Positions 1,980 to 53,193 of a stretch of DNA of 64,000 nt are shown piece after piece (positions within the stretch are counted from its first letter, which is position 1; each line of letters starts with the position of its first letter). Under the pieces are notes generated by a model. It searched no databases. It was not told the origin of the DNA and was given only the letters and a program-made list of their open reading frames with translations. Source of the stretch: Atribacterota bacterium (GTDB taxonomy: Bacteria; Atribacterota; Phoenicimicrobiia; Phoenicimicrobiales; Stramentimicrobiaceae); contig JAXGNR010000009.1 in assembly GCA_040767965.1 (NCBI GenBank), positions 37,955 to 101,954 on the forward strand, given 5' to 3'. The translations under genes and the position numbers were made by a program.

Positions 1980-2399
1980 TTTTTTTAATCAAGCGAGAAC
2001 TCCCACCTATAAGGGCAGAGGTGAGAGCATGTATCTTTACCTTTCATCCGTACTTTAATTAACAATAAGTAAAAACTTAAAAAAATTATTCTGAATTTGT
2101 TTTTTAATAATTGTTTTGTTGTATTCCATTAACAAAAAGTATTAATTAGTGCTTATTAGTCGAAAGTTCAAAAGATCCAAAAGATGATGGGAAATAATAG
2201 TCTTGCATATAATAGAGAGGAGGTTCATTACCTAAAAGAAATTACTGCGGTAAATGTTGTATTGTAATTGGATAATTGTGGTGAATAAAGATTAAGTAAT
2301 ATAAGTAATAGATGAATAATAGTGAAAAGACATTGTGGCCTCATTAGATACAAAATACGCGCATGTTTTCTGAAGGAGAAAACAATAATGATAGAAAAA

Positions 2400-3604
2400 A
2401 CTATTTCCTTATCAGTCCATCGTCTCCTGCTCTACTCTTGGACATGAATAAGATAGAGCGAAACATAAAAATGTCTCGGCTAGCAGCCGATGCGAATGTT
2501 AGATTAAGGCCACATGTTAAGATTCATGAAAGTGCAGAAATTGCCAAATGCAAATTGATGCAGGAGCGTGTGGTGTAGAAGTAGGTCCTGTGGCTCAAGC
2601 GAGTGTATGGTAAATAATGGGATTAAGGATATAAAAATTGCTCACCACAGTTATTATGGCGGACACAAGGGTGAATCACTCAAAAGAATTCTTTTGAATG
2701 GCGATGTAAAAGTCACTGTTGTAATAGATATGATTGAACAAGCTGAACAAATATCTTGTATTGGTAAAATGCTTGGTCGAGAAGTTTTCTGTAAATATAA
2801 AGATTGATACAAGTATAGTAGCAGGTGGCATTTCACGTCATGGTATCAGAACTTGATGAAGAAGCCTTAATCACCGCAGCTAGGAAGGCTTCTAGATTCC
2901 ATATTAAAGTAACAGGAATTTACGCCCATGAAATGGGTGCTGAAGCAACAGATAAGTCTTTTAGATTTCATGCTTATAAAACTCTCGAGATAATGTCAAA
3001 CTTGGCTATAAAATTTAAAAATGCCGGTATTGAATTAAATGATGTTTCTGTTGGTGCTTCCCTGAATATCGCTATACATGCAAATATCTAAGGAAAGGTA
3101 AATTCGGGAGGTAAATGAACTTCATCCAGGGGAATTTTGTGATTGGCAGTCTTGTATACTGACATCTTGGTGGTAATAAAATAGAAAATTGCGCTCTCGA
3201 AGTATGTTGGTTACAGTAATGAGTACCGCTCATCCAGACTGGGTAATGATTGATGCAGGTTATAAAGGCTTTTTCTCCTGATTATATTTTGGGAGCTGAA
3301 TGAGCGAGCTATTTCTGGGAATACAAAGGTACACCTTTACGCTTTGGTCTTAGGTAAAGAACGCACAGATTTACGGGCAGCAACATTGTGAGTGCTGAGG
3401 TACATATTTATTATATGGATCACTAAACCAAAACTAAATATTGGTGACCGCTTGGAAATTATTCCAAACAACAGCACTTGTGCTATAAATATGCATGATC
3501 CTCTATATATGGAAGTAAGAAATGGCTTTATAGAGAGAGTAATTCCTATTACCTGTGGGGTAAAGGTAACTAGTGTTACGTTCCTAAAAAATCTTTACAT
3601 TTGA
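2400..3604 (+). pseudogene. D-serine deaminase-like / alanine racemase-domain protein (DSD1 family), degraded copy 1
   Basis: Fragments PALLLDMNKIERNI, RLRPHVKIHE and C-terminal GDRLEIIPNNSTCAINMHD parallel the neighbouring copy; several frame changes. Confidence 0.5.
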
Positions 3605-3740
3605 AATATTTTATCTGATACTTTGAGCAAGGATTGATTTAAGAGGAATATTATTATTGGGTTTTGATTAAATGATTCAATGTTTAATATTATATTTATA
3701 TTATTAATAGTAAAACTTTAATATATAAAAGGAGTTTTTA

Positions 3741-4850
3741 ATGGATAGATATATAATTGGTTCTCGAGTTGAAGATATCGAAACACCTGCTCTATTACTT
3801 GAGCTTGATAAACTTGAATACAAGCATAATAAAATGGCAGACTTAATAAGAAAAAACAATAAATATATTAGACCACATTTTAAAACACATAAGAATCCTT
3901 TTAGCGCACAAACAACTTTCAGCGGGGCTATTGGAATTACCTGCCAGAAATTATCAGAAACAGAGGTGCTGGCAAAATCTGGAATAAAAGATATCCTTAT
4001 TACAAATGAAGTGGTGGGGAAGCAAAAATAAGAAGATTAGTAAATTTAGCTGCTTATACTGATATCAAAGTTGCGATTGATAATGAGCAAAATGCAGAAG
4101 ATATTTCTGAGATAGCTTTAGACAAAGGTGTTGTAGTAAATTATTTGGTTGAAGTTAATATAGGAATGAATCGTTGTGGGATAAGAATAGGGGAGCCAGT
4201 TGTAAATTTTATAAAAAAAATAAATAAATTACAAGGTTTAAAATTTTTAGGGATCTTCGCTTATGAAGGCCACGCTGTATTTATAGAGTCATTGGAAGAA
4301 AGGTATAAAGAAACCAATATAGCCCTTGAAAAAGTTAGTCATACCAAAGAATTACTTGAAAAGGAATCCATATTTTTTGTCAAATAATTAGTTGTGCAGG
4401 AACAGGTACTTATATGATTGCAGGGCAACACCCAGATGTTACAGAAATTGAGGCAGGCAGTTATCTAACAATGGATAGCAAATATGAAAATATAGAGGGG
4501 GTTGGGGAAACCTTTAAAACAGCTTTAAGTGTACTTACTACTATTATAAGCATTCCAAGTAATGATAGGATAATTATTGATGCTGGTTTAAAATCTATAA
4601 GTAAAGATTTTGGTATGCCGTTCTCAAAGAACAATAGAGAGATCTAAAATTGTATAAGCTTTCAGAAGAACATGGAATATTTAAGGTAAATAAAAGATAA
4701 TAATAAAAATTTTTCTTTAGGGCAAAAAATAGAATTAATTCCTAGTCATGGTTGTACAACGATAAACTTACATGATCTTTATTATGGAATTAGATCCGGC
4801 ATTGTGGAATGCATTTTGCCAATAGAAGGAAGAGGAAAAAGCTATTAGGT
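3741..4850 (+). pseudogene. D-serine deaminase-like / alanine racemase-domain protein (DSD1 family), degraded copy 2
   Basis: N-terminus PALLLELDKLEYKHNKM...RPHFKTHK, then continuation in two other frames (4145-4387, 4414-4647) and C-terminal GQKIELIPSHGCTTINLHD; breaks sit at homopolymer runs. Confidence 0.6.
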
Positions 4851-5222
4851 AATAATTTTAAAAGCAAGAAAGTTATAGGGTTATAACAGGATCTATTGTT
4901 GACAATTTAACAAAGGAACTAGGGAGTAAGACTTATAACTACCAGATTCTCCCTAGTCCATATTTATTCTCCCAAATTCAGCTATTCACCAATCCTCTGG
5001 AGGCATTTTAACGGTTTCTTCCCGAGCAAGGTATCTTTATTTATTGAATGACACAAGAGACCGTTGTTCATGCTAAGCAATTTTTTGTCTTTATGGGCCT
5101 TAGAAATAACCGTTATGTAGTTTAAGAAATTTTATGCTATAATAATAAAAAATATCAATTAAAACATTTCTTAATAATATTCCGTTATTCAGAACCTATA
5201 ATTTTAAAGGGAGGCAATATAA

Positions 5223-5810
5223 ATGATTGCTTATAAAACAGAAAAACTTAACAATGCCATTTGTTATTTTGCCAATGAAGTTTATAAGCGAAGGAAGGAA
5301 TATTTGCCCCAAACATTATTATATAAATTGCTTTCTTATTTGGATTTCACCAGTATTGAAAAATTAGGAGTCCCAGCTTTAGAGCTAAAATATCGTGCTC
5401 TTAAGAATGGCCCAGTACCTGAAGAGATATATCAAAACAAAGATGCATACGAAACTGATTGCTTTAAATTTGAGAAGAGAAGCAATAGAAGATTTATTAT
5501 TATCTCAAAGAGGGAAGCTGATTTAGATTATTTTTCAGATTTTGAAATCGAGATAATGAATGATTTATTAAACAGATATATCGGCAAAGAAAATACTATG
5601 AAAGAAATCATTGATAATATCTGTAATGATAGTCACAAAGATATCAAAGCCTGGAAAGTAGCATATGACCGGGGAAAAAATAGTGAAATGAATTATAGTG
5701 ATACATTTGAAGCAATTGACCAAAAAGATCTTGAAAATTTATCTATATCTATAAATGAAGAAAGGTTTTTAGTTTATCGCGGCTTAAAAGAAAAAACTAA
5801 ATGCAATTAG
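5223..5810 (+). CDS. Panacea (DUF4065)-like domain protein, putative antitoxin
   Basis: 195 aa; motif KLLSYLDF...GVPALELKYRALKNGPVPEEIY resembles the DUF4065/SocA-type signature; RBS-like GGGAGG upstream. Confidence 0.55.
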   Translation: MIAYKTEKLNNAICYFANEVYKRRKEYLPQTLLYKLLSYLDFTSIEKLGVPALELKYRALKNGPVPEEIYQNKDAYETDCFKFEKRSNRRFIIISKREADLDYFSDFEIEIMNDLLNRYIGKENTMKEIIDNICNDSHKDIKAWKVAYDRGKNSEMNYSDTFEAIDQKDLENLSISINEERFLVYRGLKEKTKCN

Positions 5811-6145
5811 GTTCAGTATTTATTTGGAAAAATTTCCCCCACGGTAAAGATGGTACCATTAAAGATAGATATTTTGTATATGTTGGAGAAAGCCATTTCC
5901 CCGTTAACCCTGTACATATATTTTTAATTACTACAACAACTAGAAAAATGTATTATGCAACAGGTGGTTCTAGAGAAAAGCATAATATTTACAAGTTTAA
6001 AGCTGGTTCTTTTGGTTTTGTGGAAGATTGTATTTTAGATATTGATTTTCTTCAATCTAATATAAAAAAAAGTGCTTTTGACTCCTGTCAAAATGAAATA
6101 AAAGAGGTTGGTAAACTTCCGGAGAAAGAATTGAAAGAAATATAA
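5801..6145 (+). CDS. Small protein with MazF/PemK-like signature, putative toxin partner
   Basis: 114 aa; ATG overlaps the upstream stop by 10 nt; GSVFIWKNFPHGKDGTIKDRYFVYVG and ITTTTRK align by eye with MazF/EndoA N-terminal strands. Confidence 0.4.
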   Translation: MQLGSVFIWKNFPHGKDGTIKDRYFVYVGESHFPVNPVHIFLITTTTRKMYYATGGSREKHNIYKFKAGSFGFVEDCILDIDFLQSNIKKSAFDSCQNEIKEVGKLPEKELKEI

Positions 6146-9524: not shown

Positions 9525-9630
9525 AAGCTCTAAGCCGAGAAAGGTAAACCATCGGTAACGATGGGACGCAAAGTCAAGGGTCCCGCCTCAACTAATCCCC
9601 TCAATGGGACTGCCAGACTATCTGCTTACT
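9525..9630 (+). ncRNA. c-di-GMP-I (GEMM)-like riboswitch aptamer
   Basis: GGUAAACC-AUCG-GUAA-CGAU-GGGACGCAAAG-UCAAGGGUCC closely matches the Vibrio Vc2 core GGCAAACC...GAAA...GGGACGCAAAGCC; P2-like stem GGUCCC/GGGACU; about 130 nt upstream of a surface lipoprotein gene. Confidence 0.65.
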
Positions 9631-9757
9631 GCACCATGTTTATTTATGATTCGAAAAGATAAATCATATTCAAACTAAACCCATTACAGCCATATTCTAT
9701 GATGAACAATTATTTAATAATATTAAAGCATGTTATATAAAAAAGGAGGCTATTTAA

Positions 9758-11965
9758 TGAAATTAAGTAAAAAACTGGTTTCTGTTAGCATGTTTTTATT
9801 GATTTTATTATTTCTGTCGAGCTGCGGAATTATACCGCAAACACCTGAAGGAAAGATTTCCGGCCGGGTACTGATTCCCCTATTTGAAATGTCTAAGGAT
9901 GTTAGCGGATGGATTCCCACAGCCAATGCCGTAGTCACTATTGTTGATGCTTCTGGAGTAACCCATACAACAACTACTGATGAGGAAGGTTATTATAATT
10001 TTGAAGATATTACAGTCAATCCAAATACAGTTATTACTGCATCAGTCACTGTAGATGAAAATATTGTCATACTTAAAAATGTAATACCCCATGCAGTCAC
10101 AGCAGGTGAAGACTATAATGCCGGTGAAATGACTCCTGAATCAACAGCATTGGCTCTGGTGGTAGAAGAACTCCTGGCAGAAGGCATGGATCCGGAAGAT
10201 ATTGACCATGAAGAGATAGAATCAAATGATAATTTTTCAGATTTAGTAGAAAAAATTACTGAAGTACTAGAAGAGGGAGGAGATGTAACTACAGATCCTG
10301 ATATTGTTGATATAATAAACGACATTATCAACCCACCTGTACCTCCCTTCGCCACCATCACCTTCTCCAACTACAAAATTACCGATCTATAACCAGACTC
10401 AGAAGACATATCATGATACTATCCAGAAGGCGATCGATGCATCCGGTAGTGGTGATATCATTATTGTCTCTAAAGGAACTATATAATGAAAACATTGTTA
10501 TTGATAACAAAAACATAACCCTGAAAGCTCCGACCCTGCAGATTCCGTTGTTGTGGCTGCCACCATCATAGACGGACAGGACTTGAATTCGGTGATAAAG
10601 ATCCTAAACGGAGACAAATCAAACCTGGAGGGATTTACCATCCAGAATGGAAATGAACCTGATTATGGAGGTGGGGGTATCTTTATCCGGCAGTTCTCCT
10701 GTGATCAGATACAACATTATTGGGGATAATATTGATGATGATATTGACACAGGGAATTTTGGAGATTGTGGTGGTGGAATTGGTGTTGTTGAATATAGTG
10801 AAACACCACATATTTATGAAAACATTATTATTGGCAACTCAGCAGACTATGGCGGCGGAATGTATATAGATTATGGTTCTCCTCTTGTTGAAAATAATAC
10901 GATTAAAGAAAATACCAGTAAGTACGACGGCGGAGGAATTACAGTGTTTTTCAGCAAGGAAGAGGAATATTGCCCAACCATCAGGGATAATACTATTGAA
11001 TATAATGTGGCAGATAATGGTGGTGGAATTGCTGTGGATGATTTAGGGATGCTATAATTGAAAATAACGGAATCAACAACAACGAAGCAATTTTTGGTGG
11101 AGGGATTTATGTTTATTACAAAGCTGATGCAGATATAAAAGGAAATAATATTATTGAAAACAATAAGGCAGGATATGATGGTGGAGGTATTTATATTGAT
11201 TCAGATGGCATCATCACTATTACCTCAAATACTATCAATAACAATGTAGCAAATATTGCTTCAGGTTCTTACTCCGGTGGAGGAATTTATGTGAATGAAA
11301 CATTCATGGCGACAACTCCCACAATTGGGGGTACGACGGGAATTGATACTGATAATTTTAACATTATCTGTGGTAACAGCCCTGACCAGGTGGATCCTGA
11401 TGATTATCCTAATAATTATTATTATACAATTGGCGATACAGGACCTGCTGGTGGGATCATCTTCTATATTGATGAAGCGAGACAGTTTGATTGGACTTAT
11501 CTTGAATGTGCACCCTATGGCTGGTATGATGGAGGAGAGGATCCAATACTGGCTTGGGGACCATGGGATGGAACCTCGGGATCACCTGGAGATGGTGTAG
11601 GAACAGGGATTTATGATTATGAATCGGATCTTGGGCTGGGGGAGGCAAATACCACCCTCATTCTTGCTGAAACTGGAACATTCCCAGCTGCTGAAGCAGC
11701 AGCTGCATATACAGGTGGTAGCCAAACAGACTGGTTTCTGCCCTCGAAATCTGAATTGAGTCTGATGTATTCCAATCTGTATCTGGCAGGATTGGGAGGA
11801 TTTTCTGATGATTCCACTAATCCACAAGATTTCTATTGGTCTTCTGCAGAAACTTCTCCTAACTCGGAATGGAAATTAGCTTGGACTAATTGTTTTGCAA
11901 GTGCAGGGCTTGGAGGATTCGATAAGACTTTGTCTTTTCGTGTTAGACCAATCCGAGCTTTTTAG
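9758..11965 (+). pseudogene. Large surface lipoprotein (beta-helix repeats, DUF1566-like C-terminus), multiply frameshifted
   Basis: Lipoprotein signal MKLSKKLVSVSMFLLILLFLSSCG; repeated GGGI beta-helix-type motifs; C-terminal DWFLPSKSELSLMY resembles DUF1566; reading frame changes at least three times. Confidence 0.6.
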
Positions 11966-15062: not shown

Positions 15063-15878
15063 ATGGTGAAAGTAGCAGTTGTGCAGATCAGCTCAGCTGG
15101 GACGGCTAAAGAAAGCCTAAATAATATGATATTCAATATTGAAGAAGCTGCAAGAAAAAGTAAAGATCTGGATGTTATTGTGTTTCCAGAATATTGTTAT
15201 TATCATCCAACAAATAGTTCAGAATCTGATAAAAACGGAGAATATGTTCCAGGTGCTTTTACAGAGAAAATTAGTGAGCTTGCCAGGAGATATCAGGTAA
15301 ATATTATTCCAGGAAGCTTTGTAGAAAAAGAGAAGAGCGGTAAGGTTTACAATACGAGCGTTTTTATTAATAGAGAAGGTAAGATTCTCGGGAAATATCA
15401 AAAAATCCATCTTTTTGATGCAATTAATATTAAAGAATCCGATAAAGTAAAAGCGGGAGAAAAAATATGTGTCATTGAGACGGATATTGGGAAAATAGGG
15501 ATAATGGTTTGTTATGATCTGCGTTTTCCAGAACTTGCAAGAAGTATGGTTTTAAAAGGAGCAGATATTTTATTTGTGCCATCAGATTTTCCTACAGGAA
15601 GCGTTCTTCCTCCAAGAACTGATCATTGGGATATCTTAGTAAGAAGTACTGCTTTGTATAATTTAACTTATGTGGTAGCAGCTAATCAATATGGTATGCT
15701 GCATGGGAGTTATCCCTTCGGACGTTCCTGTATAGTTGACCCTTGGGGAACAGTTATTTCATCAGCAAGTGGAAGAAATGAAATAATATTTGCCAACCTT
15801 GATATGGATTATCAAAAAGAAGTCAGAGAAAGTGTTGCAACCTGGTCAAACAGAAAACCGGAAATTTATGAATTATAG
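15063..15878 (+). CDS. Carbon-nitrogen hydrolase (nitrilase superfamily)
   Basis: 271 aa; VFPEY, catalytic-Cys context MVCYDLRFPE. Confidence 0.85.
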   Translation: MVKVAVVQISSAGTAKESLNNMIFNIEEAARKSKDLDVIVFPEYCYYHPTNSSESDKNGEYVPGAFTEKISELARRYQVNIIPGSFVEKEKSGKVYNTSVFINREGKILGKYQKIHLFDAINIKESDKVKAGEKICVIETDIGKIGIMVCYDLRFPELARSMVLKGADILFVPSDFPTGSVLPPRTDHWDILVRSTALYNLTYVVAANQYGMLHGSYPFGRSCIVDPWGTVISSASGRNEIIFANLDMDYQKEVRESVATWSNRKPEIYEL

Positions 15879-17627: not shown

Positions 17628-17667
17628 AGGTTACAATTGAAAAGATTCATTGTAACCTATTTTTTTG
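17628..17667 (+). terminator. Hairpin plus T-tract upstream of hflX (terminator or attenuator)
   Basis: GGTTACAAT / ATTGTAACC 9-bp stem followed by TTTTTTT. Confidence 0.35.
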
Positions 17668-17717
17668 TGGTTATTTTTACATATTCTGGATTATCATTAA
17701 GGAGAGATGGAATAATT

Positions 17718-18977
17718 ATGTTAAGAAAAGAAAAAGCCTTTTTAATAGGAGCAAATATAAATAGACAATACCACTTTGATGAGTCAATGAATGAACTTAA
17801 GAATTTAGCTCTTGCCTGTAATTACAAAGTGGTTGGACAGGCTGAGCAGAATTTAAAAGAGATTAATAATACTTTTTATATAGGTTCCGGGAAATTAGAG
17901 GAAATAAAATGCTATGCTGATGATGCAGAGGCAGACTTATTAATTTTTAATAATGAATTATCACCATCTCAGCTTAGAAATCTGGTTAAGGGATTGAAAT
18001 ACAAGATTATGGACAGGACTTCTCTAATATTAGAAATATTTGCCCGAAGAGCAAAAACAAGAGAAGCCAAACTTCAAGTAGAGCTTGCTAGAATGCAGTA
18101 TATGCTTCCGAGATTAATAGGACTTAATGAATCTATGGCACAGCAAACTGGCGGAGTAGGAACTACCACCAGAGGGGCAGGAGAAAAAGCCTTAGAGTTA
18201 GACCGGAGACAACTGGAGAGAAAAATATATGAATTGAATAAGGAATTAGAATCAATCAGCAATGAGCGTAAAATACAGCGAAAAAAAAGAAATAAAAGTA
18301 AATTGCCTACAGTTGCCCTGGTAGGTTATACTAATTCAGGAAAGTCTACCTTGATGAATACCTTGCTAGATTTAGCCAGAAAACCTTCAACTCAAAAAGT
18401 TCTGGAAAAAGATATGCTGTTTGCTACTCTTGATACTTCTGTAAGAAAGATATCTTTACCAGGTAGCAGGGATTTCCTGTTGTCAGATACGGTAGGTTTT
18501 GTTAATAATCTGCCACACAGCCTGGTTAAAGCTTTCCGTTCAACATTGGAGGAAGTAGTAACCGCAGATGTCCTGCTTCACATTGTTGATGTTTCAGATC
18601 CTGACTATGAACAGCAGGTTAAAGTTACTGATAAGACCTTACAGGAAATTGGAGCTGAAAATACTCCTGTGATATATGTTTTTAATAAAATCGATTTAAA
18701 CCCTGATTATAACACCCATATGAATGTTAATAATAAAGTATTTATCTCTGCCAGAGGGAAAATCGGACTGGAATATTTACTGGATCGGATTAACAGAGAA
18801 TTGTTTAAAGAATATATTGAATGCCAGATGTTTATTCCTTATAATCAGGGTAATTTATTGTCTTATTTAAATGAAAATACTTTCATAAAATCAGCAGTTC
18901 ATGAAAATAAAGGTACTTTATTAAGTTTAGAATGCAGAGAAAGCGATTACAATCGATTAAAGCAATTTATCTGTTAG
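17718..18977 (+). CDS. hflX: GTPase HflX
   Basis: G-motifs (GYTNSGKSTL, DTVGF, NKID); ATG 17718 with RBS AAGGAGAG preferred over the TTG at 17637. Confidence 0.85.
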   Translation: MLRKEKAFLIGANINRQYHFDESMNELKNLALACNYKVVGQAEQNLKEINNTFYIGSGKLEEIKCYADDAEADLLIFNNELSPSQLRNLVKGLKYKIMDRTSLILEIFARRAKTREAKLQVELARMQYMLPRLIGLNESMAQQTGGVGTTTRGAGEKALELDRRQLERKIYELNKELESISNERKIQRKKRNKSKLPTVALVGYTNSGKSTLMNTLLDLARKPSTQKVLEKDMLFATLDTSVRKISLPGSRDFLLSDTVGFVNNLPHSLVKAFRSTLEEVVTADVLLHIVDVSDPDYEQQVKVTDKTLQEIGAENTPVIYVFNKIDLNPDYNTHMNVNNKVFISARGKIGLEYLLDRINRELFKEYIECQMFIPYNQGNLLSYLNENTFIKSAVHENKGTLLSLECRESDYNRLKQFIC

Positions 18978-19021
18978 TTTTTCTTAATAGAATAAGTTAA
19001 GAGTTAGTATTGAGAGAAAAA

Positions 19022-19552
19022 ATGGAATATTCTATAGCTAAAATTCAAGCTCATGATTGGGAACAAATCAGAGAAATTTATTTAGAAGGCATAAAAACTG
19101 GTAATGCCACCTTTGAAAATACAGCTCCCAGCTGGGAAGACTGGCATGCTAATCATGTAAAATCATGTCGGCTGGCAGCTAAGAACGGACAAGAAATTTA
19201 TGGTTGGGCAGCCTTAAGTCCTTTTTCCAAAAGAAGTGTTTATTCAGGAGTAGCAGAAATAAGTATTTATATTAGAAAAAATCTGCAGAGAAAAGGAATC
19301 GGGAAAGCTTTACTAAAAGAGCTGATAAAAAAGTCTGAAGAAAGTGGATTCTGGACTTTACAGGCTAGTATTTTCCCTGAGAATAAATCCAGTATAATAC
19401 TTCATGAAAAATGTGGATTTAGAGTGGTTGGCACCAGAGAAAAGATTGGGAAGATGAATAATGGCTTATGGAGAGATGTTGTTTTAATGGAAAGAAGAAG
19501 CAGGCAAAAAGAGGTCAGTAGTATAGGTGAAAATATATGTCTAAAATTATAA
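19022..19552 (+). CDS. GNAT family N-acetyltransferase (phosphinothricin acetyltransferase-like)
   Basis: QRKGIGKALL acetyl-CoA binding motif. Confidence 0.8.
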   Translation: MEYSIAKIQAHDWEQIREIYLEGIKTGNATFENTAPSWEDWHANHVKSCRLAAKNGQEIYGWAALSPFSKRSVYSGVAEISIYIRKNLQRKGIGKALLKELIKKSEESGFWTLQASIFPENKSSIILHEKCGFRVVGTREKIGKMNNGLWRDVVLMERRSRQKEVSSIGENICLKL

Positions 19553-20076
19553 ATCAAAACAAATTCTTTACCCTTACTTTAATTGTTATTTTATTAGTAA
19601 CTTTGACAGGTTGTGGTTCGGTTGAAAAAGAACCTCAAACAAACACAACCGATACCGGGATTTCTCTAAATGAGAATGAGCTGAACAACAATGAAGAAAA
19701 CAAGTAATCTGATATTAATATTAATCACGTAGCAGTTATTAAAGGATCAAGTTACACCTCTAAAGAAGAAGTAGCTGTTTATCTGCATATATTCAAAATT
19801 CTTCCTCCCAACTATGTTACTAAAAGAGAGGCACAGGATCTGGGCTGGGATAATTCGAAAGGTAATTTGTGGGATGTCACTAACCGTAAATCTATTGGTG
19901 GTGATAGATTTTATAACAGGGAAGGGATTTTACCGGCCAAAGATGGACGTCTATATTATGAATGTGATATTAACTATTCGGGAGGATATCGTGGAGCCGA
20001 GCGCATTGTTTATTCTAATGACGGACTAATTTATTATACCGGTGATCATTATAACAGTTTTGAAAGACTATATTAG
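19537..20076 (+). pseudogene. Secreted barnase-like ribonuclease, in-frame TAA at 19705-19707
   Basis: Lipoprotein-type signal (LVTLTGCGS), then a stop, then in the same frame a domain matching barnase (PPNYVTKREAQDLGW...SIGGDRFYNREGILP...DINYSGGYRGAERIVYSNDGLIYYTGDHYNSF). Confidence 0.75.
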
Positions 20077-20084
20077 GAGAATAA

Positions 20085-20372
20085 ATGAAAGAAATTTGGT
20101 TAAATGGCGCAAAAATGACAGACCGGGAAAGCACGCATGCCTATCTTAAAAGAAAATTATCTTTACCTGATTACTATGGTAATAATTTAGATGCTCTCTG
20201 GGATTGCCTTTCTACTGATTTCTCACCAAAAAAAATAATTATATTTAATACAGAAAAATTAAGAGAAAACCTGGGTTCTTATGGGGAATTACTCATAAAT
20301 CTTTTACGTGAAATAGCCCGGGATAATGAGTTTATAAAGCTGATGGTTTATTTGCCATTTTCTAAACTGTGA
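20085..20372 (+). CDS. Barstar-like ribonuclease inhibitor
   Basis: LPDYYGNNLDALWDCL nearly identical to the barstar motif LPEYYGENLDALWDCL; 8 nt after the barnase ORF. Confidence 0.85.
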   Translation: MKEIWLNGAKMTDRESTHAYLKRKLSLPDYYGNNLDALWDCLSTDFSPKKIIIFNTEKLRENLGSYGELLINLLREIARDNEFIKLMVYLPFSKL

Positions 20373-20394: not shown

Positions 20395-21471
20395 GTGGCT
20401 TCTAAAAAAAGAGCAGGTTTATTTTTAGCAGTTATTATAATAATGTTTTTTTTAATATCTTTCTTGGGAATTTCAGCAACTGAAAGTAAAGGACAACTTG
20501 CCGCAGTACAAATGAAGCTGAGAATTGAAGATTTTTACTCACAACAGGACTTCACAAAAAAAATAGAAAGTCTGCTAGGAGAAGTGGCTGCTAAAACAAA
20601 TCCTGATTTTCCTACCCTTGTTGTTTTCCCGGAAGATATCGGTTTAATGCTAATTGCCCAGGATAATCAGCAAACTTTAAGTGCAGTACATACAATCGAA
20701 GAAGCTATCAAGAAAATGACTATGAAACATCTTCTACCACTTGTCTGGTTTAGATTAAGATATAATCTTTCCTGGGTACCAGCCTTGTATTATTATAAAA
20801 ATAAAGAAATTGCCCAAACCTATTTTGAAACTTTCAGCAGTTTATCTAACAAATACCGGATGTATATAGTTGCTGGTTCTGTTTTACTGCCTCATTACGA
20901 AATAAGTAATGGTGAAGTGCTTTACCAGGAAGGCCCCTTAAGTCCGAAAATATATAATACTTCATATCTTTTTAATCCTGAAGGGAAGGTTGTTGGTTTT
21001 CAGGATAAAGTACATCTGCTGGAATTGGAACAGGAAGGTGGTCTACATCTGACTGCGGGAAATTTAGATGATATCAAAGTATTTGATACTGCAATAGGCA
21101 AAATAGGAATAGCAGTTTGTCTGGATAGCTTTAAAGAAGATGTTATAAATGAACTAAGAGAAAAGGAAGCAGAAATACTTATTCAGCCTTCAGCCAATCC
21201 GGTTCTCTGGGAAAAATGGCAACAGGTAGAATGGATGGAAAGTAGTTATAAATTTACTCATGAATTGCGCTATTTTCAATATGCAGTAAATCCTATGATG
21301 AATGGAGATTTTTTTGACCTTAGCTTTTATGGACAGTCAAGCATCATAAACAGGGAAAATACAGGTAATTTAAAAAACTACTTTGATTTATCGCCACAGG
21401 ATGGATTCCTGGCAATAAGTGATTCTGCTGACCTGGAAGAAATATTGGTAGTAGAAATTGAATTACCATAA
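20395..21471 (+). CDS. Carbon-nitrogen hydrolase family protein with N-terminal membrane anchor or signal
   Basis: 358 aa; hydrophobic N-terminus; catalytic-Cys context IAVCLDSF. Confidence 0.7.
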   Translation: MASKKRAGLFLAVIIIMFFLISFLGISATESKGQLAAVQMKLRIEDFYSQQDFTKKIESLLGEVAAKTNPDFPTLVVFPEDIGLMLIAQDNQQTLSAVHTIEEAIKKMTMKHLLPLVWFRLRYNLSWVPALYYYKNKEIAQTYFETFSSLSNKYRMYIVAGSVLLPHYEISNGEVLYQEGPLSPKIYNTSYLFNPEGKVVGFQDKVHLLELEQEGGLHLTAGNLDDIKVFDTAIGKIGIAVCLDSFKEDVINELREKEAEILIQPSANPVLWEKWQQVEWMESSYKFTHELRYFQYAVNPMMNGDFFDLSFYGQSSIINRENTGNLKNYFDLSPQDGFLAISDSADLEEILVVEIELP

Positions 21472-46087: not shown

Positions 46088-46308
46088 ATATTGACAAACA
46101 TAAAGAAATGGTAAATACTTTTAATAGTCTGCCTGAAAAAAAATATTATTACAGAATACCACAACTCCGAATTATCTAACCTAATGATAAAATACTATTT
46201 TTTTCTATGGTTAGATAATCAGTTATTATTTGTAAAATAACCAAGGGCAATTAAGGAAACTTAATTGCCTCCCATAATTGGAAAGGAGGGATACTTTGCA
46301 TGAAGTTC

Positions 46309-46385: not shown

Positions 46386-47231
46386 ATGGAATTTGTAACA
46401 TTAAATAACGATATAAAAATGCCCATGTTAGGGTATGGTGTATTTCAGATTGCAGATGAAAAAATATGCGAACAATGCGTATCTGATGCCATTAAGGCCG
46501 GCTATCGTTCCATTGATACAGCAGCAGCTTATTTAAACGAAGAAGCAGTAGGAAGAGGTATTGAAAAAAGTGGAATACCCAGAGAAGAACTCTTTATAAC
46601 AACTAAAGTCTGGGTACAGGATGCCGGTTATGAAAATGCTAAAAAAGCTTTTGAAAAATCCATGCAAAAATTGCAGCTGGATTACCTTGACCTATATTTA
46701 GTTCACTGGCCTTTTAGTGATTATTATGGTTCCTGGAGGGCAATGGAGGAACTTTATAAAGAAGGAAGAATCAGGGCAATTGGTGTTTCTAATTTTTCCA
46801 GAGATCGCCTGTTTGATTTAATATTAAATAGCGAGATAGTGCCAGCAGTTAACCAGGTTGAAGTACATCCGTTTAATCAGCAGATAGAACAAAAGAAGAT
46901 CATGGATGACTTAAAAGTACAGATGGAATCCTGGGGGCCACTGGCACAGGGTAAAAACAATATTTTTAAAGATGAAATATTGTCTGCCATTGGAAAGAAG
47001 TACAGCAAAACTGTGGCTCAGGTAATCCTGCGCTGGCATATTCAACGTGGAGTTGTTGCTATTCCCAAATCTGCTACCAAAGAAAGAATTATAGAAAATT
47101 ATAATATATGGGACTTTCAATTAAGCCAGGAAGATATGGATGCTATTAAATCTTTTGATACAGGCAAACCTTTCCTGGACGGCACCAGCTTAGAGACTGT
47201 TAAAAGATTAAACAGCAGTAAGATCCATTAA
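46386..47231 (+). CDS. Aldo/keto reductase
   Basis: 281 aa; IDTAAAY and LVHWP motifs. Confidence 0.9.
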   Translation: MEFVTLNNDIKMPMLGYGVFQIADEKICEQCVSDAIKAGYRSIDTAAAYLNEEAVGRGIEKSGIPREELFITTKVWVQDAGYENAKKAFEKSMQKLQLDYLDLYLVHWPFSDYYGSWRAMEELYKEGRIRAIGVSNFSRDRLFDLILNSEIVPAVNQVEVHPFNQQIEQKKIMDDLKVQMESWGPLAQGKNNIFKDEILSAIGKKYSKTVAQVILRWHIQRGVVAIPKSATKERIIENYNIWDFQLSQEDMDAIKSFDTGKPFLDGTSLETVKRLNSSKIH

Positions 47232-48846: not shown

Positions 48847-51800
48847 TTAAAATCTTAAATTTAAACCGAATTTAAAGCGATAATCGCTATCATTTATTGA
48901 AAAGCCTTCAAATTGAGTATTCAGTGACAGATCCGAAGAAACCTGATAATCAATACTGATGATTTTTTCACCTTGGAAATCTAAAGGGGTGGTATAACTA
49001 ATAAAAAAGTCATCACTTATATTTTTCCCTACCTCTAATTTTAAACTTGACAGATTCATCTTTTCAAATAAAAAGATACTGTCATCATCAGAAAATAAAT
49101 TTTCAGTTGATAATCTTAAAAAATCTAAACCAAGCTGTTGTGCCAATCCACTTTCTATTTGACGCAGTAAATTTATCTGAATGCTTTGAAACAGGATTTC
49201 TATCAATTCCTGAGAGAGTAACTGATTTAATTCTCCCTCAGAAAGGCCTTCAATGTTTCTTCCCAGGGCCAGTAGAGAGATTATTTCAGTCTCCAGCATT
49301 ACAGGCTGGGATGATAAACGTACCTGGGGCTGGGCTAAGTTACCGGAAACATCTATCATTATTAGAACATCCTGAACCATAGTCTCTGCCCTGGCGTTAA
49401 TATTAATATCATTAACTGTAAAGCCGTTAATTGCAGCTCGTCCTTCAGTGATATTAAATTGTCTTTCTAAATAAACCAGAGAACCTCTTCTTAAATTAAT
49501 GTTTCCCTGAATAGAAAGATCATCCAGTTGCCCGGTTAAAAGAGCGTTTCCGGTTATATAAATTTCGGCATTTGGAAGCCTCAATGTAAAAGGATCAGCA
49601 ATAACAATATTCATATCCAGCTGAACAGGTAGCGCAGGAGATTGACTATCCTGAGATTCAGGAATGAGCTCATCCAGATTAAATGCTTGTAGCTGGTTAA
49701 GATTCAAATGACCATTAGTTAAGTATAATTGGCTTTCTATCTCTAAAGCTGGCCATGAACCTTTAGTTTCTGCAGTAAAAATGATTTCACTTTCAATAAT
49801 ATTTTGAAAAGAAATCTTCTGCTGGATATTTTTAATAGAAATAGAAATATTTTCGGGATAAAAAGAAATGAATTCAAAATGACCTTCTAAAGTAAATTGA
49901 TTTTCAAATGCTGTTAATGGAATTGGTAAAATTATTACTTCATTATCATTAATCTCTATTCTGGTATCAACTTGTTCTAATTTAACCGGGAAATCTTTTA
50001 ATGACAGACCTCCTTCCTGAATATCAATATAGCCATTTAAAAGAGGCATACTGCTGGTACCGGTTAAACTAAGGTTCAGATCAATATTACCTGTATAATT
50101 TGCAAAGATATCTTTCCAGAAAAGATTTAATATATTCAAATCAGCTTGTTCCATTTTAATTTGAAAATCTAGCGGAAAATCCAACCCGGAAGAGGGAATG
50201 GCAGAAACCCGATCCTCTATAAAGAAAGAATCCAAGGGTAGATTGCCTTGTGCTACGATCTGATATTCTTCTTCTAAAGAAAGAATGAAATCTCTTACTT
50301 CTAAATTTCTATTCTGACTATTCCAGTAAAAATCGGCATGCAGGTCTTCAAATTTGAATTCTCTAAAATCACCTTCCTGCATTCGGGCTACTATTAAAAT
50401 CTCCGGCTGGGTAAGGATACCTTTTAAAGTTCCTTCAATATCCATGATTCCATTAGCCGTTTCTTGAGTGTCAATAAGCTGCAGCAGAGTTTTTATATCA
50501 AGTTGTTCTGCTTGGAAATTTATATCCAAAACCTGATCTAATCCAATACTTCCTTCTGCTCTCAGCTGACCAGCAGGTTGAATAAAGTGAAAATCAGAAA
50601 TAAAAAATCTTTGTTCCTGGTAAGAAATTTCTGCTTCTATTTCAGAAGCTAAAGAACTGTCTGGTATTTGAGGAAGAATCTGGAGAGATAGCTCCATCTG
50701 CTGCTTATCTTTATCCCCACTAAAAGCCACTCTTCCGTTTATATTTGAAGGTAAAAATTCTTTTAAACTATTATCTTCTAAAGGATAAAAAGATTCAACC
50801 AAATCAATAATATATTCAGAGGAAAATTCCGTTTCTCCGGAAAATTGGAAATCTTCTCCTATTTTTATTTTCCCATAAACCAGCAATTCCATCATTTCAT
50901 TTTTTAAATCTAATTCTTCCAGTAGTAGAGAATAAGTGTAACCATTTATGTTCAACAATGCAGATAAACTATCTTCACTTTCAACAGGGTAAAGGATGCT
51001 TTTTTCAGGCTGTAAGATAAAATTTGCTCTGCCATTTCCTAAAGGATAATTATCATAAAGGATTTCTTCTAATAAAAAATTCCCTGATAAAGTTAATACA
51101 GGCCATATTCCTTGAATTATCCCATTCCCGGATGTTGATCCGGATAGTGGAGTAGAAAATGTAAAAATTTGACCCAGATTTTCAATATTGATAGATTCTA
51201 ATTGATAGACAAGATCAACTTCAGGTGCATCAATTGTATTCAGGTTTATATTTCCAGAACTGGTAAGGTTTAATTCCTGATTTTTTATAGAAAAATCTTG
51301 CAAGGAAATGATATTATTTTGTAATGACAGGATTCCGTTTAAATTACCTAAATAATATTCTTGAAAAGATAGTTCCTGCAACCTGAATTCGGCAATAATA
51401 TCAGGATTACTGGCATTGCCGGTGATAGCAGCTTCTATCTCTGCACTACCTGCAATTTTTTGGTCAAAAGCCAAAACATTTATCAGATTGGAGATTTCCG
51501 GTGTTTGATATTCAATATTTAAGGCAAAGCGGGCAGTTTCAGCAAAGCTTATATTTCCTTCAATAAGTGCCAGATCATCTAACAATTCTATTTTGCCTTG
51601 CTGGATAGAAATAGTGTTTTTTGCAAGATTGACAGTTGATTTTAGCTCACCTGCCAAAGGATCAGCCAACAGGATATTGTTGATAACAAGTGAATCTATG
51701 GTAAATTGACCTTCAAGCTCCAGGAGGCTGCTGTTTCCCCAGGTATTTTCTATTTTAAAATTACTATCAAGATTTCCGGAAATATCTTTCAAACACGAAA

Positions 51801-53193
51801 ATTGATTAAACGCAGGGTGGTGCAAAGAGAAATTTGTTGTTTTTAAAAGTATTTGATAATAAGGTAATTCTTCAGACCAATCAATATGTCCCTGAACTGC
51901 CAAAGAAGATTCTGCATCTGCAGCAGTTAACGAATGAATAACAAGTCCATTTTTATTTACTGAAAATTCTAAATCAATATTTTGAAAATCAACATTTTCA
52001 ATATTAATTTTAGGAGAATATGCTTCTGCTCCTATCTGGAATTCCTCTGGCTGTCCTTGTATGGTGGCACTTAAATCAATATCTCCCTGAAAAGAAAAAT
52101 CTTCAAAGTCTGGCCAAAACAAAATTAAATCGCTTTTTAAAACAGCAGAATTTAAAATGGTACTTTTCAAATCAAGATCAACATATACTTCAGGTTCTGT
52201 TGAGATTAATCCGCTTAACTCAATGGTATTTCCCTTATAAAGTCCTTCTAGTTTAGAAATGGTTATTTCAGGTTTCAGGATATTTATAGAACCATGAATA
52301 TTATCAAGAGGAATTTCTTCTAAAAATAAAGGATTTGCCTGGACTTGATACAGGATTATCTCGCCCTGCCAAAAAGGAGTTTCGTCATCGTTTCCAGAAG
52401 ACAAGTTTAAATTAAGGTTAAGATCGAATTTCCCTTTATTTATATTGAATTCCTTCCCGATTTCCAGATAGTGCTGAAAATGGGTTAGGTCAGCATTCTT
52501 TAAAGTGAAGTTAATTGTATAATAGGGTTGATCAGCATAAATATTTCCATTTAAAATAAGTGTTGTGCTGTCTTCTTTATGATTTCCTTGAAAATCAAAG
52601 ATAATTTCAGGCAAATTTGACAAATCCAGATATCCATTAATATTTTCTACTTGTGTAGTTAATGCTTCTCTCTCATAAAAATATATCAGTTCATCATGCA
52701 AGGTTAAATGGCTATCCTGAAAATAAACGCGGTCTATAAATATATTCTGCTGATCTTCTCCAAATTCAAGATCAAATTTTTTTAATAAATCAAATTGACC
52801 GTCAATTTCTCTGACGACTTCCAGATAGGTATTGTAAATAGTGATGGCATGTATGTCGAGTTCCCAATTTTTCCAATCAAGAAGAGATAATACCAAATTG
52901 AAGTCAATTTTAACTTTTTCTGCCTGCAGTAAAATATCTTTTTTATCAGCTTGATCATTAAAAACAATAATTTTATTTACCTGCAACGATTGTAAAGAAA
53001 TATTATCCAGAGAATCAATCTCTACTCTTTTCCCCAGACTGCCTTCAAGCTGTGCTATCAGGAGAGATTTAATTTTGGGTTGTAAAAAATCACTATTTAA
53101 AAAATAATAAAAGACACCAATAATTAAGAGTATTGCTAATGCAAATATTAGAGAAAATATTATAAATTTACTATTTATTTTTATACTTATCAA
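48847..53193 (-). CDS. tamB: TamB/AsmA-like translocation and assembly module protein
   Basis: 1448 aa; N-terminal signal-anchor; long beta-rich repetitive body; intact single frame. Confidence 0.75.
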   Translation of the reverse strand: MISIKINSKFIIFSLIFALAILLIIGVFYYFLNSDFLQPKIKSLLIAQLEGSLGKRVEIDSLDNISLQSLQVNKIIVFNDQADKKDILLQAEKVKIDFNLVLSLLDWKNWELDIHAITIYNTYLEVVREIDGQFDLLKKFDLEFGEDQQNIFIDRVYFQDSHLTLHDELIYFYEREALTTQVENINGYLDLSNLPEIIFDFQGNHKEDSTTLILNGNIYADQPYYTINFTLKNADLTHFQHYLEIGKEFNINKGKFDLNLNLNLSSGNDDETPFWQGEIILYQVQANPLFLEEIPLDNIHGSINILKPEITISKLEGLYKGNTIELSGLISTEPEVYVDLDLKSTILNSAVLKSDLILFWPDFEDFSFQGDIDLSATIQGQPEEFQIGAEAYSPKINIENVDFQNIDLEFSVNKNGLVIHSLTAADAESSLAVQGHIDWSEELPYYQILLKTTNFSLHHPAFNQFSCLKDISGNLDSNFKIENTWGNSSLLELEGQFTIDSLVINNILLADPLAGELKSTVNLAKNTISIQQGKIELLDDLALIEGNISFAETARFALNIEYQTPEISNLINVLAFDQKIAGSAEIEAAITGNASNPDIIAEFRLQELSFQEYYLGNLNGILSLQNNIISLQDFSIKNQELNLTSSGNINLNTIDAPEVDLVYQLESINIENLGQIFTFSTPLSGSTSGNGIIQGIWPVLTLSGNFLLEEILYDNYPLGNGRANFILQPEKSILYPVESEDSLSALLNINGYTYSLLLEELDLKNEMMELLVYGKIKIGEDFQFSGETEFSSEYIIDLVESFYPLEDNSLKEFLPSNINGRVAFSGDKDKQQMELSLQILPQIPDSSLASEIEAEISYQEQRFFISDFHFIQPAGQLRAEGSIGLDQVLDINFQAEQLDIKTLLQLIDTQETANGIMDIEGTLKGILTQPEILIVARMQEGDFREFKFEDLHADFYWNSQNRNLEVRDFILSLEEEYQIVAQGNLPLDSFFIEDRVSAIPSSGLDFPLDFQIKMEQADLNILNLFWKDIFANYTGNIDLNLSLTGTSSMPLLNGYIDIQEGGLSLKDFPVKLEQVDTRIEINDNEVIILPIPLTAFENQFTLEGHFEFISFYPENISISIKNIQQKISFQNIIESEIIFTAETKGSWPALEIESQLYLTNGHLNLNQLQAFNLDELIPESQDSQSPALPVQLDMNIVIADPFTLRLPNAEIYITGNALLTGQLDDLSIQGNINLRRGSLVYLERQFNITEGRAAINGFTVNDININARAETMVQDVLIMIDVSGNLAQPQVRLSSQPVMLETEIISLLALGRNIEGLSEGELNQLLSQELIEILFQSIQINLLRQIESGLAQQLGLDFLRLSTENLFSDDDSIFLFEKMNLSSLKLEVGKNISDDFFISYTTPLDFQGEKIISIDYQVSSDLSLNTQFEGFSINDSDYRFKFGLNLRF

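Follow-up and report, generated by a model that had tools for sequence, protein, structure and literature searches.

The window, by which we mean the whole 64,000-nucleotide stretch of DNA analyzed here, has a GC content of about 33% and carries on its forward strand a cluster formed by a GNAT acetyltransferase gene (19010..19552, identified by Pfam), an RNase gene (19537..20076), an intact barstar-family inhibitor gene (20085..20372) and a CN-hydrolase gene. The RNase gene begins within the GNAT gene, the two overlapping by 16 nt, and an AGGTGA motif lies 6 nt 5' of its native ATG. Translation of 19537-20079 yields a single frame, MSKIINQNKFFTLTLIVILLVTLTGCGS...NNNEENK*SDININHVAV...SFERLY*, in which the 56 codons translatable from the native ATG, encoding a signal peptide and linker (19537..19704, +), are followed by an internal TAA (19705..19707, +), by 122 further codons that specify a complete barnase-fold catalytic domain (19708..20073, +) and by a terminal TAG (20074-20076). 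The ancestral gene would thus have comprised 179 codons plus the TAG and encoded a lipoprotein-type exported RNase of the barnase family; the window copy is interrupted at codon 57, and its export signal and catalytic domain no longer share an uninterrupted ORF. An initial annotation had described a signal-peptide ORF and a barnase domain lying in one frame and split by this TAA, a description that the translation bears out, and every coordinate that it gave proved accurate.

The N terminus of the RNase, MSKIINQNKFFTLTLIVILLVTLTGCGS, has the layout of a lipoprotein-type signal peptide: a positively charged segment, a hydrophobic stretch and then a lipobox, L-T-G-C. The segment reads MSKIINQNK-FFTLTLIVILLVTL-TGC and conforms to the lipobox consensus [LVI][ASTVI][GAS]C, which by pattern only identifies Cys26 as the modified residue. 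L20, G25 and C26 of this leader are invariant across 14 family members of ~180 aa, and a low-complexity linker rich in Asn and Glu follows the signal peptide. Based on these features, the leader is predicted to be a lipoprotein-type signal peptide, and the intact protein would be exported and lipidated.

To the 3' side of the stop, the 122 residues match the Pfam Ribonuclease family (PF00545) with an E value of 3.7e-22 and 79.1 bits (family cut-off, 24 bits) across profile positions 12-97 of 98, and a phmmer comparison aligns them with barnase chains from the PDB (E 2e-34), ungapped over barnase residues 8-109. Residue mapping reveals that K96, D123, N127, R128, E129, E142, R152, R156, H171 and Y172 are kept, corresponding respectively to barnase K27, D54, N58, R59, E60, E73, R83, R87, H102 and Y103. 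The set includes the catalytic general base and acid, Glu73 and His102 (E142 and H171), the transition-state residues Lys27, Arg83, Arg87 and Tyr103 (K96, R152, R156 and Y172) and Asn58, Arg59 and Glu60 of the guanine-recognition loop (N127, R128 and E129), and the key RNase residues are invariant in 14 relatives. By sequence, then, this is a domain of the barnase, or microbial guanyl-specific RNase, family (RNase N1/T1 superfamily), and the ancestral enzyme is predicted to have preferred guanyl sites. The window RNase is a member of the barnase family by descent but a putative pseudogene in its present state.

The barstar gene starts 8 nt after the TAG of the RNase gene and has its own ribosome-binding site, an AGGAG Shine-Dalgarno-like motif that ends 5 nt before the ATG. 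Its 95-aa product matches PF01337 with an E value of 2e-20 and 73 bits (family cut-off, 23.4 bits) over profile positions 1-93 of 96, and it matches barstar chains from the PDB with an E value of 2e-10. The binding helix, LPDYYGNNLDALWDCL, aligns with barstar LPEYYGENLDALWDCL and contains the acidic DxxxD pair (Asp35, Asp39), which is the signature listed for barstar in PMC3482391. The equivalents of barstar Y29, D35, W38, D39 and E76 are kept, and W44 is not conserved in the window protein. Relative to its conspecific orthologue, the window barstar has one conservative difference, Leu for Ile, at the codon at 20292; protein look-ups returned no match to the exact window barstar product or to the product of the neighboring methyltransferase gene. 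The protein is predicted to inhibit its cognate RNase. These results agree with the initial annotation, which had placed an intact barstar 8 nt downstream with a near-identical motif and had proposed comparing both proteins with the barnase and barstar models; both match.

To examine the nature of the stop, we turned to sequences closely related to the window. A protein search with the read-through sequence returned two 179-aa proteins (P0001 and P0002) that align with the whole query (100%) at 96% identity, and both have Gln at position 57. Three metagenome contigs, drawn from JGI 3300015214 and from ENA ERZ27247376 and ERZ27247346, share 98.2% (L001), 98.3% (L002) and 97.7% (L003) DNA identity with the window, which places them in the same species. 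The gene order of L001 is that of the window, GNAT-RNase-barstar-CN_hydrolase; L002 agrees up to barstar, and L003 ends just inside barstar. In the DNA alignment, all three read CAA where the window reads TAA, there are no indels within the RNase gene, and the 179-codon gene is uninterrupted in each, which reduces the stop to one C-to-T transition at 19705 (Q57*). This substitution is the sole lesion of the RNase gene, and the ancestral state, as read from these alignments, is one gene for signal peptide, linker and RNase domain. Scanning metagenomes with N in place of the variable base recovered only L001, a CAA contig; the TAA allele was likewise absent from the two ENA contigs, both CAA, and neither the 56-aa nor the 69-aa fragment of the split gene (the latter starting at the first canonical start codon after the stop) occurs as an exact entry in a collection of 15 billion proteins. 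The orthologous loci carry a sense codon at the position where comparison had been suggested by the initial annotation, whose framing of the locus as inactivation of the toxin, internal initiation or sequence error is supported by the conspecific CAA, the two family matches and the intact barstar.

The window copy of the RNase gene carries five substitutions unique to the window and the GNAT segment beside it carries none (Fisher p = 0.16); the RNase gene is more variable than its neighbors in the intact strains too. The enrichment is not significant and so provides no independent sign of relaxed selection. Strain-specific substitutions within the gene are clustered, those of L001 mostly at 19650-19778 and those of L003 mostly at 19799-19821, and the ratio of nonsynonymous to synonymous changes is about 0.3-0.5, compared with 0 to about 0.2 in the neighboring genes. 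Together, the clustering and this ratio hint at recombination or diversifying selection acting on the linker and the N-terminal part of the domain.

Among more distant relatives, four loci (L085-L088) encode an RNase about 63-64% identical to that of the window in an uninterrupted gene; the order HflX-RNase-barstar-CN_hydrolase-TRAM methyltransferase is present whole in L086 and in part in L085, L087 and L088. Reference genomes contribute 51 further related loci, in every one of which the ORF begins 5' of the RNase domain and runs on without interruption; most have a recognizable signal or lipobox N terminus, and in most a barstar gene lies just downstream. An in-frame stop is found in none of these 58 loci, whether conspecific (3), syntenic (4) or more distant (51). 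In a scan of GTDB representatives, which do not include the window species, the best match was 57% identical. The GNAT gene adjoins the RNase gene in the same way in L001 and L002, and the more distant syntenic loci L086-L088 lack it; it probably forms part of one operon with the RNase gene, and no functional link between it and the RNase/barstar pair is evident. The CN-hydrolase gene directly 3' of barstar keeps its place in every syntenic relative whose sequence reaches it, and this conserved position of the pair, between hflX and the CN-hydrolase gene, suggests vertical inheritance rather than mobility. A scan for promoters and terminators found nothing relevant to the locus above shuffled expectation.

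As for the host, the closest named relatives of the HflX protein (17637-18977, +) come from MAGs of 'Candidatus Caldatribacteriota' (75% identical) and 'Candidatus Atribacteria' (69%), and a 1,447-aa TamB/DUF748 protein encoded at 48847-53193 (-) points to an outer membrane and hence to a diderm cell. The barnase/barstar pair is conserved and chromosomal, and its host is a low-GC diderm bacterium, probably a member of the Atribacterota and not a Firmicute, to which the low GC content might otherwise point.

Several other features of the window were recorded. The CN-hydrolase gene next to barstar (20395-21471, +), whose product has an N-terminal hydrophobic segment, is one of two nitrilase-superfamily paralogues within 6 kb, the other lying at 15063-15878 (+). 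At 5223-6145 (+), the gene for a SocA/Panacea-domain protein (PF13274, 195 aa) and a 114-aa ORF with no match in Pfam overlap by 10 nt; the two could be an antitoxin-toxin pair. Two riboswitches were found, a c-di-GMP-I riboswitch at 9533-9625 (+, 48.7 bits) upstream of an ORF at 9730-10392 and a Moco/tungsten riboswitch at 46153-46304 (+, 80.9 bits) upstream of an ORF at 46386-47231.

Based on the conspecific and wider comparisons, the most likely reading, and one in which we have reasonable confidence, is that the window carries a very recent, strain-specific nonsense allele by which the RNase has been lost and the barstar retained. Its main competitor is a base-call, consensus or assembly artefact, in which case the gene of the organism would be intact with CAA at codon 57; the source could be a sequencing or polishing error, a deaminated cytosine, or a minority read variant taken up by the assembler. 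Several observations are of the kind that such an artefact would produce: the change is a lone substitution in a gene with no other lesion, TAA was seen only in the window and CAA in all three conspecific contigs, each assembled independently, the window lineage shows no significant relaxation of constraint, and C-to-T is the change typically left by deamination damage to cytosine and by certain base-calling artefacts. Atribacterota have few cultured members, and the source of the window is a draft contig of 125,516 nt from a lineage that is probably uncultured, hence probably a metagenome-assembled or single-cell genome.

On the other hand, the rest of the window looks accurate, with 41 long ORFs covering 42.7 kb uninterrupted, and the site around 19705 is neither a homopolymer nor any other obviously error-prone context. 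A random substitution in the RNase gene yields a stop only ~5% of the time, so that for one nonsense error roughly 20 erroneous substitutions would be expected nearby, and with them a high error rate overall. The window also contains genes with several lesions each, in a block of decaying genes of ~4.5 kb. The TRAP-transporter large permease gene dctM (PF06808, 687-1979, +) is split into three ORFs (687-1013, 934-1395 and 1554-1979) that follow one another along the profile (1-82, 158-228 and 289-412 of 413), and it looks like a pseudogene with several lesions. Downstream, two tandem genes of the Ala_racemase_N/D-Ser-dehydratase-like type (2363-4900, +) are fragmented: the second copy (3741 to about 4870) matches PF01168 and PF14031 once two changes of frame and two in-frame stops are bridged in its reconstruction; the first is too degraded for a Pfam match. 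Sequencing errors that fall at random would not be clustered like this; together with the uninterrupted ORFs, the multi-lesion genes argue for an accurate assembly of a genome that truly carries decaying genes. We infer that the TAA at 19705-19707 is truly in the DNA, and we regard an artefact as unlikely, if by no means negligible.

Far less probable is that the stop gives rise to something new and functional, a cytoplasmic RNase without a leader that barstar would hold in check, the two behaving like an intracellular toxin-antitoxin module, with translation starting either at TTG 19867 or at a noncanonical codon after the TAA such as ATT 19714 or 19720. The completeness of the catalytic domain and the undamaged barstar would fit such a module, as would a weak GAAAGG motif 4 nt before TTG 19867. 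This TTG is the only canonical in-frame restart, and no in-frame ATG, GTG or TTG occurs between 19708 and 19866. The initial annotation had given it as a possible start of the barnase domain; however, it lies inside the domain, where it aligns with barnase Leu42, and the 69-aa product (19867..20076, +; barnase 42-110) would be truncated rather than a whole barnase domain. The product would lack helices 1 and 2 and K96, the equivalent of the catalytic Lys27, and should therefore be inactive, a prediction from the alignment that makes the leaderless RNase from an internal start entertained by the initial annotation unlikely. A lone barnase 37-110 fragment is reportedly unfolded and inactive, and Lys27 is important for catalysis. 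The literature that we found on barnase fragments consisted of general split-barnase papers, according to which the fragments need reconstitution. The ATT codons at 19714 and 19720 have no Shine-Dalgarno motif near them, and the arrangement is seen in none of the 58 related loci. A version of this reading in which Q57* is a selected state and noncanonical reinitiation just past the TAA yields a leaderless, full-length cytoplasmic barnase domain deserves still less credence; if it were true, a pair of exported RNase and inhibitor would have become, by one base change, something like an intracellular toxin-antitoxin module.

Least credible of all is programmed read-through or recoding, in which inefficient decoding of the TAA would throttle the output of a dangerous enzyme: the in-frame continuity and the perfectly preserved downstream domain are all that favors it, no orthologue has the stop, not even the conspecific ones at 98% identity, so that it is not the conserved feature that a recoding site would be, TAA is the main genuine terminator of the window, ending 20 of the 41 long ORFs, no tRNA gene, suppressor or otherwise, occurs in the window, and an Rfam search found no RNA-family match near the TAA, its only hits being the two riboswitches far off. 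The stop stands in the context TAAT; TAA followed by U is the strongest termination context in bacteria. Reassignment of the stop codon was rejected, given the same use of TAA as a terminator and the normal translation in code 11 of genes of up to 1,447 aa.

Returning to the preferred reading of a recent nonsense allele, we propose the following sequence of events. The ancestral 179-codon gene would produce a prelipoprotein whose Sec-type signal with the lipobox LTGC directs export and lipidation at Cys26, and the flexible linker would then tether a guanyl-preferring, barnase-fold RNase outside the cytoplasm. Barstar, translated from its own ribosome-binding site, would stay in the cytoplasm and block any RNase that folds before export. 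The C-to-T change that turns codon 57 from CAA into TAA would end translation from the native ATG just after the linker, leaving a 56-residue prepeptide that signal cleavage would trim to a short lipopeptide of ~31 residues. No functional enzyme would be made, and in the window genome the RNase is probably dead. That barstar has not yet decayed may mean that the event is very recent or that barstar is useful against the RNases of neighboring cells. The mechanism suggested for the relatives fits classical barnase/barstar biology as summarized in PMC8625414.

The best known counterpart is the barnase/barstar pair of Bacillus amyloliquefaciens (with binase of B. pumilus/intermedius), which has the same fold and the same PF00545 and PF01337 pairing. 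The window pair shares with it the order of toxin then immunity gene and, by prediction, the combination of an exported enzyme with a cytoplasmic inhibitor. It differs in its leader, a lipoprotein signal (LTGC) with a ~40-residue linker in place of the Sec signal and propeptide of Bacillus barnase, and the enzyme is consequently predicted to be membrane-tethered, not freely secreted. The host is probably a diderm member of the Atribacterota rather than a Bacillus, the window RNase carries Q57*, unlike Bacillus barnase, and the window barstar does not conserve W44 of Bacillus barstar. Simple barnase-barstar pairs are widespread across bacterial phyla and also occur in some methanogens (Zhang et al. 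2012; PMC3482391); the window pair is likewise stand-alone, toxin then immunity, and in contrast to the polymorphic toxin systems described there, it has no delivery domains (RHS, LXG) and no cassette polymorphism. Among the loci that we collected, two from rumen Methanobrevibacter MAGs (L053 and L054) have pairs of a barnase-type RNase and barstar with signal peptides, the RNase domain being ~50% identical to that of the window, an observation consistent with interdomain gene transfer in gut and rumen communities. What the window shows is a lone nonsense allele, or else a base error, affecting a toxin/inhibitor pair of a well-known kind.

Bacillus subtilis YrdF is a barstar homologue without a barnase, that is, an orphan immunity gene. 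In orphan immunity loci of this type, as in the window, the inhibitor is retained and the cognate RNase is absent or inactivated; unlike at YrdF, the toxin gene of the window is still present and is one nucleotide from functional, so Q57* can be no more than the earliest step on the way to an orphan barstar. For annotation, the RNase is best recorded as one pseudogene, or as a gene with a possible base error, and not as two small ORFs, with the barstar gene recorded as intact. The barnase-type RNases of this lineage, probably the Atribacterota, are predicted lipoproteins encoded at a conserved site adjoining hflX, and the window allele, if real, would be a snapshot of a toxin-immunity pair that is starting to become an orphan immunity gene.
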